Below, piece by piece: positions 1 to 61,845 of a DNA stretch of 64,000 nt. Under the pieces are notes generated by a model. That model was not told where the DNA came from. It searched no databases and saw only the letters and a program-made list of their open reading frames with translations. The stretch's first letter is position 1; each line of letters opens with the position of its first letter. The stretch spans positions 35,930 to 99,929 of the IMG/VR virus record IMGVR_UViG_3300026549_000056; one strand, written 5' to 3'. The DNA is from a virus. Lineage: Duplodnaviria > Caudoviricetes. The position numbers and the translations under genes are program-made.

Positions 1-2240
1 TTACGATAGTCATAAGCGTAAGTTGTAATCTGATCACTTGCATCTTTAATTGTCGCAAGCCAGCCCGCCCTATCTGCCATTCGAGGCACTTCTTTACCTG
101 TTGTGTCTTTGTCAAAACCGTAAGGATATTCAGTCTGTAACTGTTTTAGTGAATCAAAACTACTAAAAACATGATTACTCTGATAAGCTGCACCAAGATT
201 AATCCAATATAAATTACCTTCGCCATCATCATTACCAGTCGTATTAGTATATTCTGGAATATCATAAAGAGTGTTCTTCAAAGCATAATCAGAACCAGCT
301 TTATATAGCTTCTTACGAACATCTGGGTCAGAATATAATACAATAATATTATCTCCATACAACTGAATAGAAGCAATATTATTTAAAGGCAGTTTATTGA
401 ATGTATCACTCTGCTTAACTCCATTAACTTTATTATTGTAATTGACTTTTAAATACTTATTAGAATCAAGTCTACCTTCATTAGTAATTTCAACAGATTC
501 AATAGTCCTCATGAGGGCTAATTCTGTAGAAGTACCATCGTTATAATAAGCAGTTACGATCTTAGTATCGGGATCACATTCAATTCTATCAACAAACTTG
601 AATTGCTCGTCAATCCACTGAATATCACGACCTTCGTCATCTGTAGTAGGATAAATTTCTTGCCCACTAGCGTTGATAGAAAAGTCTTTATCAATTACTA
701 CATTACCTTGATTATCATGTTTAAACGTATTATAGACAATTCTAATCTTGTCAACCACATGAGATTTACCATTGCTATCAACCCATGGCGTATCTACATA
801 GTCTATACGTAAGATACCTGGTGCAGTACCAAGATATACCTGGGCCGCCCCATCAGAATATTTTACATAGAATCTACCAGTATTTTCATCATAGATGATA
901 TCATCAACAACTCTAATAGCAACAGTCTCATTATCACCATGAGTAAAGTGAACCGTAATTAAATTAGGAGTGACAATCTCATCATTTACAACCTGCCAAA
1001 TAACAGTGCCATCTAAAACTGTATTATATCCTGGCGCTATTGTCTTACTCTCAAGACCAGTCAATTCTGCACTACCAGTAATACCACTTTGAGTACATTG
1101 TAGACATAATCCATTTCCTAGACCGTCAGCAGTTACTCGCTGCCCGACACCATATGTAGTATTTCTAGTAACTTTATTTAGCACATTTAGTCCGCGCCCA
1201 TTATCTGTGATCTTATGGATGGCTCTATTATAGCCATCAATATAAGTCTTAGTGGTCTCGCCCTCTGCGCTCTTTTCATAGTTCCTAGTAACATAATAAT
1301 ACTGATAATTATGATCACTTTGATCTACATCATTACCATCATTTAAAGTCTTACCAGTTAACTCAAGACCAAATTTCTCTAGATCTTGACCTCTTACTCC
1401 TTTTGGTACTTTAACATCATACTGCCAATAGTAAGGATGAGTTTTAGAAATATCATCTTCCTTAATTAAATTAGTATACTTCCAAACCTTTTCAGTTTCA
1501 TCATAAGCGGCATAACCAGTGTCATAAGGTTCAATACTTTCAGCATGATATTTAAATACATTAGACGGAATATCAACAGAAATAGTAACTCCTGTAATAT
1601 TTCCATCCTTATCTTTTACATTTACATAACCATACTTAATAACATCAACAATCTCAGACTCTTTAACATTACCATTCTCATCAAACGTGGCGGCGGCGAT
1701 CGGTTTAATATCTGAGCTAGCTTTCTTGCCGTCTCCTGCCTCGTACTCTTTCAGAAATGTTTTCCAATCAACTACAGATAATTCGGTCGCCACGCCCTGT
1801 GGTCCAACTATCTGGCCAACATATTCAGCACCGCCGCCAGGATTAGTAACAAACTCATTAAATGCAAGTCTAAACTTATTTGCGTTAAATACTTTATTAG
1901 TATTTCCGTCTTTATCAGTAGTAATGTCGTAATATCTTTCAACACCGCTACTATCTTTATCATTCTTTTCTATTGAATAGTCACTATTGACATTCAAATT
2001 ATTAGGATTGAAAGGTTCAAGATAATTCAATCCTCTTCGGTAAATAATACCATTCTAAGGGCTATTATAGTGATTCTTATTGGCTATTGTATCAATAATA
2101 ACATACTCACCATAGTTTACAGTATTATAACTACCACCCTTCTGGAAGGCATCGACCATTTCCTTGATACTATCGTAGTGTGCGACTAGTCTATAAGTGG
2201 TACCTGGCTTGCCACCATACATACTATATTGAAGTGCCAT
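1..2240 (-). CDS. Large putative tail/structural protein, runs off the window edge (>746 aa)
   Basis: ATG at 2240. One in-frame TAG at 2055-2057 (HYNSP*NGIIYRRG), then the frame stays open to position 3. It is the most distal gene of the virion module in this window. Confidence 0.75.
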
Positions 2241-2590
2241 TATTTACTCTCCTTCCATCTCCAATGCTTGCCCGCAGCTGTCTTACATTTCACTTTGCAA
2301 ACTGAAGAAATCATTGAAATAGAAATATGATTTTCTTCCGCTGCCTCAGTCATCGTTCTGTAAACTTTTCCTGTTTCTATACAAATAACTGATTTGGGGC
2401 AACCACCGCCTCGATGATAATCTTTATATTTTTCAGACATTTCTTCTAAATCTATATCTTCTATATTAGCAGTATCTACATACGCCCAATGTAAAGGATT
2501 TCCACCACTTTGACCAATGTATATTTTGCCATTAATCTTATTAATATGGGTATATATAAGAAAATGCCTGTCTTTATTCTAGTCTTCCAT
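2240..2590 (-). pseudogene. Internally deleted GIY-YIG homing endonuclease with a C-terminal NUMOD1-like DNA-binding motif (116 aa)
   Basis: MED*NKDRHFLIYTHINKINGKIYIGQS (GIY-YIG-like) is joined after ~35 aa to KSVICIETGKVY..MTEAAEEN..ISMISSVC..KTAAGKHWRW. The rest of the nuclease domain is missing. TAG at codon 4. Confidence 0.65.
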
Positions 2591-2601
2591 ATATACCCTC
2601 C

Positions 2602-3372
2602 TTAGGCTTCATCCCACGCATAATCTAGAATGAACTGATCTATATTACTAGCTGATGATCCATTCGGATTAGCAAAACCTACAAATGTAATTGGAACGCC
2701 ATTATTAATTTCCCACGTTCCTGTCCTACCTATTCTAATTGGTTCTCTATTAACACAAATTAATGATCCAGGTCTACTTTGAATACCAATTTTATCCACA
2801 GATGATCTAGGTAAGATATTATTAACAATCGCAATGTCGCCATTTTCTCCAAAATCAATATTGGCCCTAATATCATCACGCGGCACCGCCTCTAGATAAT
2901 CATAAGTTGTTCTACTAAGAATAAATCCAAGATAAGGATAAATTGCATTAGAAGTGAACATAGTTTCAAAAGAAAAGTATTCTGTATTAACTCCAGGAAT
3001 ATAAGGTTCAACTGCGATACTATTTTCAATAATTTGATAAGTACCTCTCTCATATTCGCCATTAGAACTAGACCCATCATGCTTAAGAAGCTCTAACTTA
3101 ATAACCATTTCTCTTGGATCGTTGCTATCTTTAGTCATTGGATAAGTAGTAGCACTAAACCTAGGATCGTTATATGGAATTCGTTTAATAGAAAATCTTA
3201 AATAATAAGTATTATTAGTATTAAAATTGCCATTATTACTTAATCTAATGGCATAATCTTCAAATAACTTTACCGCATATCCTTCTGTCTTTACTGTCGT
3301 AGCAGACCAAGACAGATCAGTTAGATATGAAGTTGTATTGTTCTTCCTTAATTGGCCTATCTTATATGACAT
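2602..3372 (-). CDS. Hypothetical virion protein (256 aa)
   Basis: Intact ORF with AAGGAG RBS and TAA stop, in the tail module. Confidence 0.75.
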   Translation of the reverse strand: MSYKIGQLRKNNTTSYLTDLSWSATTVKTEGYAVKLFEDYAIRLSNNGNFNTNNTYYLRFSIKRIPYNDPRFSATTYPMTKDSNDPREMVIKLELLKHDGSSSNGEYERGTYQIIENSIAVEPYIPGVNTEYFSFETMFTSNAIYPYLGFILSRTTYDYLEAVPRDDIRANIDFGENGDIAIVNNILPRSSVDKIGIQSRPGSLICVNREPIRIGRTGTWEINNGVPITFVGFANPNGSSASNIDQFILDYAWDEA

Positions 3373-3392
3373 GTCAAACTCCTTTTATCTCG

Positions 3393-60201: not shown

Positions 60202-61379
60202 TGCTAACGCAAAAGCAGGAGTTAGCGCTCCAAGCAATCGTTGAAAAATATCAAAATCATGAGAAATATGTTGTAATTGGTGGCTATGCTGGTAGTGGTA
60301 AGAGTTACCTCGTGAAATTTGCGATCGCCGCCCTAGAAAAATATGGCATTCATGAAGATAAAGTCTGTTATGCAGCCTATACTGGAAAAGCTTGCCAAGT
60401 TTTACTTTCAAAAGGAAATAAAAATGTTTCTACGCTACATAAATTGATGTATGAAAGTATCCCCAAGCCAGATGGAACATTTTTCAGAAGAAAGAAAGCC
60501 TCACTCGGATACGATGTGATTGTTGCTGATGAATGCTCTATGATACCAAAACCGCTTATGGAGAATCTGCTATCGTATCCAGTATTTGTTATTTTTTTAG
60601 GAGATCCTGGACAGCTTCCCCCCGTAGATAAAGATGCAGATAACCATCTCCTTGATCACCCTGATGTCTTCTTAGATCAAATTATGCGGCAGGCACTTGA
60701 TAGTGAAATCATCCAGCTCAGTATGAAGATACGCCATCTTGAACCTATTACATATTATCAGGGTAAAGATGTTATTGTTCTTCCTAAAAAACAATTAAAC
60801 ACAGGGCATTTGTTGTGGGCAGATCAAATCTTGTGCGCGACTAACGCCACAAGGACAACTATTAATACACAAATGCGAGATCTTTTAGGACATAAGGGGC
60901 GGCCGCAGGATGGAGATAAAGTAATTTGTAGCAGAAACTATTGGGATAATATTGCTGTTAATGAGGATCCATTAGTAAATGGTACTATTGGTTTTCTCAA
61001 AAATACATATGAAACAAAACAGCACTATCCTAAGTATCTTTATCCAAAACAAGATGTTCGTGTACTTGGAGGAGAATTTATTTCAGACACAGGAGCAGAT
61101 TTTGGTAATCTTAATTTTGATGAAGATATGATTTTAACAGGCGAACCATCCGTAGATTGGAAAAGCGCTTATAAGATTAGTAAAAATGCTAGATATAGAG
61201 GAACACTCCCTTATGAATTTTTATATGGATATGCAATTACGACTCATCGTGCACAAGGTAGTGAATTCCCTAAAGTTCTTATTATTGAAGAAAAGTTTCC
61301 TTTCGACGAAGAAGAACATGCTCGATGGTTATACACAGCAGTAACGAGAGGCAGCAAAAAGGTGGTGCTAGTGAGGTGA
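60201..61379 (+). CDS. RecD/Dda-like SF1B helicase (392 aa)
   Basis: GYAGSGKS, DECSM, GDPGQLPP, IMRQ, YAITTHRAQGSEF and LYTAVTR motifs. Confidence 0.9.
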   Translation: MLTQKQELALQAIVEKYQNHEKYVVIGGYAGSGKSYLVKFAIAALEKYGIHEDKVCYAAYTGKACQVLLSKGNKNVSTLHKLMYESIPKPDGTFFRRKKASLGYDVIVADECSMIPKPLMENLLSYPVFVIFLGDPGQLPPVDKDADNHLLDHPDVFLDQIMRQALDSEIIQLSMKIRHLEPITYYQGKDVIVLPKKQLNTGHLLWADQILCATNATRTTINTQMRDLLGHKGRPQDGDKVICSRNYWDNIAVNEDPLVNGTIGFLKNTYETKQHYPKYLYPKQDVRVLGGEFISDTGADFGNLNFDEDMILTGEPSVDWKSAYKISKNARYRGTLPYEFLYGYAITTHRAQGSEFPKVLIIEEKFPFDEEEHARWLYTAVTRGSKKVVLVR

Positions 61380-61382
61380 AAT

Positions 61383-61658
61383 ATGGAATATTTTAAAGAT
61401 CGCTATAATAATCCATATTTAAAATATACAAAATAGTATTTAAGAACTGCTCCAAAAATAATTCAATTAATTGCATTAAAAAATATGGACTATCCTTTTG
61501 TGCCAGATGTTTGGATGCATAAAAATTTTCCTAAATATATTGCAATTATGAGATTAAAAGATTTCTAGCCTTTTAAATGGAAAGATTCTAAATTTTTTAT
61601 AAAAATTAAAATTCAAAAATTACTGTCAAAATTTTTAAATCTTGACTTCTTCTACTAA
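61383..61658 (+). CDS. Hypothetical protein (91 aa, 2 TAG)
   Basis: GAGGTG RBS; open only with TAG read-through; fills the gap after the helicase. Confidence 0.5.
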
Positions 61659-61704
61659 TTATGATAAATAATTGTAGCAAAAAACTAATTTTAGTGAGGT
61701 AAAA

Positions 61705-61845
61705 ATGAAAGTTAAAAAATAGTTAAGATAGAAATATCTAGGTTGGCACAGACCCACTTTCATTGAATATCAAGATGCTGTGATTACTGAATCTAAATGC
61801 AAATATTGTGGTAGAAGTATAATGGAAGATAGTCAAGGAAATTGA
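61705..61845 (+). CDS. Small hypothetical protein (46 aa, 2 TAG), possibly truncated
   Basis: GAGGT RBS; LGWHRP..CKYCGRSIMEDSQGN then TGA. Confidence 0.5.

Follow-up and report, generated by a model that had tools for sequence, protein, structure and literature searches.

An amber codon probably read as glutamate in the late genes of a rumen and gut phage clade

Genes of the locus and their in-frame TAGs

The DNA considered here is a 64,000-nucleotide (nt) stretch, hereafter the window, made up of bases 35930-99929 of one 99,929-base-pair (bp) virus contig in IMG/VR (record IMGVR_UViG_3300026549_000056). It carries structural, lysis and homing-endonuclease genes of a phage contained in cattle-gut sequencing runs of 13 studies, and in these genes the amber triplet TAG stands in frame. 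Our analysis indicates that UAG is probably translated there as glutamate (Glu) rather than as glutamine (Gln), the meaning given to it in genetic code 15. CheckV puts the contig at about 64% complete, with roughly 36% of the genome missing. By its structural module the phage is SPbeta-like and a relative of phage phAss-1, with the portal and Yom/Yon-type virion genes in conserved order; it is not a Lak- or crAss-like phage, the groups from which an earlier note on this sequence knew amber reassignment.

Open reading frames (ORFs) of at least 100 amino acids (aa) were called with only TAA and TGA as stops. They contain 189 in-frame TAGs in the 99.9-kilobase (kb) contig, about 140 of them in the window, and all lie in late, lysis or homing-endonuclease genes. 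With TAG as a stop, as in the standard code, the minus-strand block (3393-34576) and a number of genes on the plus strand fall into pieces, and readthrough of TAG turns these into long genes. The earlier note had described fragments joined by in-frame TAGs into genes stopping at TAA or TGA, and this proved correct, as in ORFs of 2734 aa with 26 TAGs, 1418 aa with 16 and 900 aa with 14. Recoded ORFs end at TAA or TGA, mostly TAA, and none needs readthrough of TAA to reach full length.

On the minus strand, the block begins with a tail protein of 702 aa and 8 TAGs (3393..5501; weak DUF5048 match, phrog_32343), a tail protein of 900 aa and 14 TAGs (5517..8219) syntenic with genes of 899-927 aa in relatives, and a late protein of 211 aa and 9 TAGs (8261..8896). 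The 1418-aa tail protein with 16 TAGs (9182..13438), whose TAG columns were counted, is followed by the tape-measure protein of 2734 aa and 26 TAGs (13573..21777; PF10145), at whose TAG columns the codons of relatives were read, and by a late protein of 382 aa and 14 TAGs (22578..23726). Then come a YomV-like tail protein (25412..26179; 255 aa, 4 TAGs), a YomW-like protein (26172..26795; 207 aa, 3 TAGs), a virion protein (26816..27886; 356 aa, 3 TAGs) with aspartate (Asp) in 27 of 35 relatives at one TAG column and Glu in 35 of 39 and 21 of 39 at the others, a YonB-like protein (29450..30484; 344 aa, 1 TAG) and a YonD-like head protein (31056..32462; 468 aa, 3 TAGs). The names of YonB-, YonD-, YomW-, YomV- and YomU-type virion proteins derive from synteny with annotated relatives. 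The portal protein (32475..34133; 552 aa, 3 TAGs, phrog_2739) and an HNH or homing-endonuclease-like protein (34220..34576; 118 aa, 5 TAGs, all five columns Glu-majority with 47-74 Glu each) complete the block.

The recoded plus-strand genes are an endolysin of 360 aa and 3 TAGs with an ELLD domain and a weak SH3 match (39854..40936), a GIY-YIG homing-type endonuclease of 311 aa and 15 TAGs (50741..51676), and a 215-aa protein with 4 TAGs (51673..52320; phrog_6721, weak Thy1 match). An internal contrast is provided by a block of long TAG-free genes at 41545..50251 and a second TAG-free gene block at 52755..58000, both also on the plus strand. In relatives, homologues of gyrase B and A lie directly 3' of the endolysin.

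The distribution of TAG between these gene classes is sharp. None of the 10,551 codons of TAG-free genes is an in-frame TAG, compared with 149 of the 10,586 codons of recoded genes; since out-of-frame TAG is frequent in both classes (166-255 per roughly 10.5k codons), this difference is not due to chance. GAG is still common in the recoded genes, with 198 codons. A gene with nine TAGs was recovered in contigs of the best DNA run with 0 differences and in those of another study's RNA library with 1. Between contigs of the same species, at 87-91% identity, 62 of 68 and 24 of 27 aligned TAGs were kept, and TAG recurs at the same conserved Glu column in relatives of only 40-60% identity.

Outside the window, four early-region ORFs (genome positions 1057-1971, 3564-4526, 6119-6700 and 13797-14279) have a TAG 7-25 codons ahead of the next TAA or TGA. 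TAG may therefore still terminate some early genes, which would fit a timed code switch.

Residues opposite TAG in relatives

Codons were read after the phage proteins, in which X stood for every TAG, had been aligned with the raw DNA sequences of relatives, namely 74 IMG/VR loci found through the portal and six metagenome contigs found through the tape-measure protein; tail-gene anchors searched against IMG/VR gave one locus with one anchor and none with the other. The residue was then judged by a Codetta-like log-likelihood tally at the DNA level, with 2000 bootstraps over columns.

In a first pass, 22 TAG columns had at least five aligned residues, and 17 of them were Glu-majority, two Asp-majority and none Gln-majority. 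The mean fractions at TAG columns were 0.63 Glu and 0.02 Gln, against 0.51 and 0.05 at the phage's own GAA/GAG columns and 0.12 and 0.38 at its own CAA/CAG columns. The tabulation that the earlier note had proposed, run here at the DNA level, thus shows TAG columns resembling Glu columns. With only standard-code and TGA-recoded relatives, Glu was the best reading of the 22 columns, followed by Asp (-14.8 log-likelihood units) and Gln (-21.1), and the ten strongly conserved columns comprised nine of Glu and one of Asp, without any of Gln.

A broader tally, which took in all DNA-level relatives minus same-species contigs and counted sense codons only, covered 84 TAG columns in 14 genes. Glu again came first, with Gln 40.2 and Asp 58.8 units behind; it won 2000 of 2000 bootstraps and all nine strongly conserved columns. 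The preference for Glu over Gln in the earlier note is therefore supported, as is its remark that no TAG falls at a conserved Gln: no conserved TAG column is Gln. Tested pairwise against 16 relatives, Glu was chosen every time. The relatives' codons opposite TAG were GAA 755 times, GAG 123, GAT 110, TAG 68 and CAA 59. Among Pfam and PHROG profiles, translation of TAG as Glu outscored Gln in 9 of 11 families, by about 12 bits summed; the ELLD profile gained 3.5 bits and the HNH family profile 6.4 bits (range 6-10). Comparison of Glu and Gln content with and without TAG was indecisive, TAG making up only about 20% of the Glu-type codons of late genes.

The individual sites on which the earlier note had relied, at 34556, 34409, 34316, 31881, 33534, 26093, 39902, 51551 and 51590, are all real in-frame TAGs, and the TAG at 51913 in the ThyX-like protein is likewise in frame. 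In the nuclease, 34556, 34409 and 34316 (positions 7, 56 and 87) fall in Glu columns, with Glu in 74 of 74 relatives, in 69 with TAG in the other 5, and in 60, respectively. Site 31881, placed by the earlier note in a protease and lying in the YonD-like head protein, has Glu in 58 relatives and TAG in 5, while the portal site 33534 and the YomV-like site 26093 are Glu in 71 of 71 and 36 of 36. Two sites in the GIY-YIG endonuclease fared less well: at 51551 Glu is the commonest residue (46) but is mixed with Gln (30) and Asp (28), and 51590 is no Glu column at all, with serine 43, alanine 23, Asp 19 and Glu 11.

The endolysin site 39902, in the motif SGHD-x-NG, shows how public annotation bears on such counts. 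Its column consists solely of Glu (99) and of 'Q' (20) as translated by gene callers, and all three 'Q' entries that were checked in DNA are TAG (L167:3055-3057, L168:3736-3738 and L169:3691-3693, in phages 42-56% identical to this one). Full-length versions of the recoded genes do exist in protein databases, translated with TAG as Gln. Gene callers that translate TAG in this way make protein-level tallies understate Glu; tallies from protein databases are confounded accordingly and were used only with that caveat. Judged by these columns, public annotation is placing Gln at conserved Glu positions, among them the best-conserved Glu of the endolysin domain and sites where Glu is invariant, and code-15 annotation is probably wrong for this clade.

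The method itself discriminates between codes. It returned TGA as tryptophan (Trp) for five relatives and TAG as Gln for six relatives with at least nine TAG columns. In a reciprocal comparison, the TAGs of phAss-1 stand opposite Gln 8 times and Glu 2 times in this phage, pointing to Gln, whereas the TAGs of this phage stand opposite Glu 11 times and Gln 2 times in phAss-1. Glu was also returned, by 35-90 units over Gln, for the IMG/VR contigs L020-22 and L028-29 and the metagenome relatives L151-154. In a portal tree of L001-L074, the genomes reading TAG as Glu form one clade, lineages reading it as Gln branch outside, and TGA as Trp occurs in another subclade. A single phage family with portals at least 42% identical thus has standard-code, TGA=Trp, TAG=Gln and TAG=Glu members.

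A candidate suppressor tRNA and a possible switch

Outside the window, at genome positions 5.2-19.9 kb, ARAGORN and Rfam detect an array of 20-odd transfer RNAs (tRNAs) and a transfer-messenger RNA (tmRNA). No uninterrupted tRNA with the anticodon CUA was found on the contig, about 64% complete, by ARAGORN at several thresholds, Rfam or a loop scan. A complete sister genome that reads TAG as Glu (G001) has exactly one CUA tRNA, with the anticodon loop CUCUAAA. The contig holds an interrupted counterpart at genome positions 12196-12333, with a 62-nt insert between C34 and U35: its loop reads CUC, 62 nt, UAAA, and removal of the insert restores CUCUAAA. The D loop is identical to that of the G001 suppressor, the anticodon stem is ACGGU/ACCGU and CCA is encoded. 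The insert is predicted to form a closed three-hairpin junction atop an otherwise normal cloverleaf, and no second copy of it was found in IMG/VR. An RNA ligase is encoded on the contig.

In IMG/VR, the 17-nt D-arm motif of the suppressor is present in about 23 tRNA-Glu genes, two CUA, two CAU and two histidine tRNAs, and in 0 tRNA-Gln genes. Two further phage contigs carry suppressors with a tRNA-Glu-type D arm; a search for this D arm with the CUCUAAA loop gave no true tRNA in 185,579 species genomes and, in metagenomes, only two further phage contigs. CUA tRNAs with the tRNA-Glu-type D arm have C1-G72 as first pair, or G1.U72 in one case, and the copy in this phage combines C1-G72 with A73, as does its own tRNA-Glu(CUC). 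The three suppressors of phAss-1 have U1-A72, A1-U72 or U1.C72, each with G73, like phage tRNA-Gln genes, and other bodies. From the D arm, C1-G72 and A73, we infer that the CUA tRNA belongs to the tRNA-Glu lineage rather than to that of tRNA-Gln. Whole-sequence nearest neighbours of the suppressor did not help, one set being biased by the way loci were fetched and the unbiased set uninformative.

These features suggest how Glu could come to be inserted. The decoder would be a phage tRNA(CUA) derived from tRNA-Glu, with the D arm of phage tRNA-Glu(UUC), and the host glutamyl-tRNA synthetase (GluRS) would charge it with Glu. Either the 62-nt insert would be removed, or an intact suppressor copy might lie in the missing roughly 36% of the genome. 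As elsewhere among recoded phages, the avoidance of TAG in early genes would postpone the virion and lysis proteins to the time when the suppressor tRNA has been produced. No GluRS- or glutaminyl-tRNA synthetase (GlnRS)-type enzyme and no class-I release factor was found on the contig, about 64% complete.

In bacteria, a non-discriminating GluRS charges both tRNA-Glu and tRNA-Gln, and an amidotransferase recognises Glu-tRNA(Gln) through U1-A72 (PMC9976931). The suppressor of this phage would remain Glu-tRNA because it is without the weak U1-A72-type first pair needed by the amidotransferase and GlnRS. We propose that, once a CUA tRNA is charged with Glu, its first base pair could set whether the Glu is kept or converted to Gln, and such a switch would explain why TAG differs in meaning between sister phages. 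The full proposal, a natural TAG=Glu code in a rumen and gut phage clade with Gln and Glu toggled by the suppressor's first pair via host amidation, is tentative, and we hold it to be somewhat less than an even bet.

Several other features of the tRNA region deserve mention. The tmRNA (L075:10571-10916, outside the window; Rfam 114 bits) encodes the tag peptide AENIQIAA. In a second tRNA-like gene (L075:12765-12882; Rfam 46.8 bits), an insert of roughly 40 nt replaces the normal anticodon arm, and the D arm is nearly identical to that of one phAss-1 suppressor. Genes for a DUF7788/DUF2828 protein and an RNA ligase (L076:1163-2272; L076:7939-9156) are nearby, and the tRNA-like gene may be a Y-RNA-like tRNA mimic. 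G001 has a tRNA gene (L107:2199-2750, minus strand) split by a 464-nt insert that apparently contains an ORF and may be a group I intron encoding a homing endonuclease; interrupted tRNA genes are a recurrent feature of the phage family. A tRNA-Glu(UUC) in which C33 replaces the near-universal U (loop CCUUCAC/CCUUCAA) is found at L075:8581-8654 and also in the unrelated L118 and L131. ARAGORN reports tRNA-like genes with four-base anticodons, ACCA at L075:19822-19892 (just above the Rfam threshold) and UUUG in G001 at L107:9936-10007 (minus strand). An 89-nt stretch of the tRNA region (genome 14279-14369; L148:2279-2369) is missing from contigs of three of four runs, two DNA and one RNA library, and looks like a strain-level indel.

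Weighing the readings, and known systems

We put the probability that UAG means Glu in the late, lysis and homing-endonuclease genes, with TAA and TGA remaining stops, at about 0.86. Several observations tell against this. Two tail-protein profiles favour Gln, by 0.8 and 3.1 bits, and in a closer relative (L151) the variable tail proteins have an excess of Gln opposite TAG, at 0.19 compared with 0.04 at true Glu codons. Within the species, TAG is exchanged with CAG or CAA seven times and with GAG or GAA five times; these few events fit easy C-to-T mutation at tolerant sites and would also fit some reading as Gln. The only CUA tRNA gene on the contig is interrupted, and a self-splicing group I intron would, to our knowledge, need more than 62 nt; no insert-free joint occurs among assembled contigs, which is uninformative on splicing. 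Compared over its whole body, the suppressor shows weak likeness to tRNA-Glu beyond the D arm. In Escherichia coli, moreover, a tRNA-Glu whose anticodon is changed to CUA mostly receives Gln. Among the strong determinants for GluRS in that species is C36 (PMC9976931).

One way to accommodate some of these points is ambiguous decoding, in which one or two CUA tRNAs would give a mixture of Glu and Gln, for example through partial amidation or charging by GlnRS. It would account for the excess of Gln partners in variable tail proteins and for the same-species exchanges of TAG and CAG, and tRNAs with CUA anticodons are prone to charging by GlnRS. Yet the conserved columns show only Glu, and the suppressor has a strong C1-G72 pair. 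The surplus of Gln is limited to proteins of low conservation and is what frequent C-to-T change of CAG at tolerant sites should produce; we consider mixed decoding improbable.

Ordinary code 15, with TAG as Gln and the Glu columns as tolerated Glu-to-Gln replacements, has in its favour that Gln is the sole amber meaning reported for phages, together with the same-species exchanges, the enrichment in L151 and the two tail profiles. It would require dozens of Glu-to-Gln changes at invariant sites of the portal, nuclease and endolysin, and it has to contend with a deficit of 21-40 log-likelihood units and with conserved TAG columns of which nine are Glu and none Gln, several being invariant across 36-74 relatives. 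As the same test does yield Gln in true code-15 relatives, we regard this explanation as very unlikely. That UAG specifies some other residue, Asp for example or a non-standard amino acid, seems more doubtful still: Asp ranks second in the tally limited to standard-code and TGA-recoded relatives and predominates in 2 of 22 columns, but Glu leads it by 15-59 units and wins every bootstrap, and Asp is as frequent at TAG columns (0.10) as at true Glu columns (0.12). That the TAGs are untranslated, whether dead genes or sequencing or assembly artefacts of GAG through G-to-T damage, a check raised in the earlier note, is hardly credible and the artefact can be excluded, for although GAG is one G-to-T change from TAG we found no supporting data, and the frame- and gene-class-specific placement of TAG, the frequency of GAG, the agreement of independent assemblies that include RNA libraries (0-1 differences; phage present in 13 studies) and the conservation of TAG within the species and across relatives all speak against it.

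With UAG read as Glu, the phage very probably uses a genetic code so far undescribed for phages or bacteria; we found no report of TAG=Glu in a phage or bacterium in the literature searched. If this is true, it would add a natural genetic code for viruses of bacteria, and an entire clade of phages abundant in the cattle and human gut is currently mistranslated, since the amber recoding reported so far in phages is all to Gln and tools and databases hard-wire code 15. It would also mean that the meaning of a reassigned stop can differ between close relatives. First base pair and amidotransferase together offer a specific rule, open to testing, by which tRNA identity would fix the meaning of a stop, and a natural Glu-inserting amber suppressor may serve as a tool.

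Only TAG-to-Gln and TGA-to-Trp changes have been observed in phages whose code is unlike that of the host (Borges et al., bioRxiv 10.1101/2021.08.26.457843), and mass spectrometry has confirmed Gln at TAG for two crAss-like phages (Borges et al., bioRxiv 10.1101/2021.08.26.457843; Peters et al., PMC9523058). As in the code-15 gut phages (crAss-like, Lak and others), TAG here is dense in genes for structure and lysis, and early genes have none. The recoding is likely to serve the timing of late proteins. Those phages also have a tRNA array with a CUA tRNA; in the present phage the CUA tRNA is interrupted. Unlike in them, where TAG is Gln, the TAG columns are Glu and the tRNA bears the D arm of a phage tRNA-Glu. 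The comparison supports TAG=Glu as a variant of the known late-gene recoding of stop codons in phages.

Closest among described phages is phAss-1 (proposed Phassvirus group; OQ749652.1), published as TAG=Gln (PMC10607447). Both belong to a broad SPbeta-like family; their portals are 34% identical, relatives measure about 135 kb, and each has a large tRNA array and late genes with TAG. They differ in that phAss-1 reads TAG as Gln and has three suppressors with G73, whereas the clade of the present phage would read it as Glu with C1-G72 suppressors.

Outside phages, the peritrich and Blastocrithidia codes are NCBI translation tables 30 and 31. In peritrich ciliates and Blastocrithidia UAG means Glu and UAA is reassigned too (PMC12153298). 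The likeness lies in the meaning of UAG, and Blastocrithidia reads UAG with a cognate tRNA-Glu of changed anticodon. In contrast to these eukaryotic, genome-wide codes with UAA as Glu, TAA is the main stop here and recoding is confined to a class of viral genes. The indirect pathway to Gln of bacteria without GlnRS, which relies on GluRS and GatCAB, contains a Glu/Gln switch of one base pair for tRNAs accepted by GluRS (PMC9976931). This matches the acceptor-stem difference between the TAG=Glu and TAG=Gln suppressors of this phage family, and by this analogy we infer a link between the pathway and the meaning that each suppressor would give to UAG.

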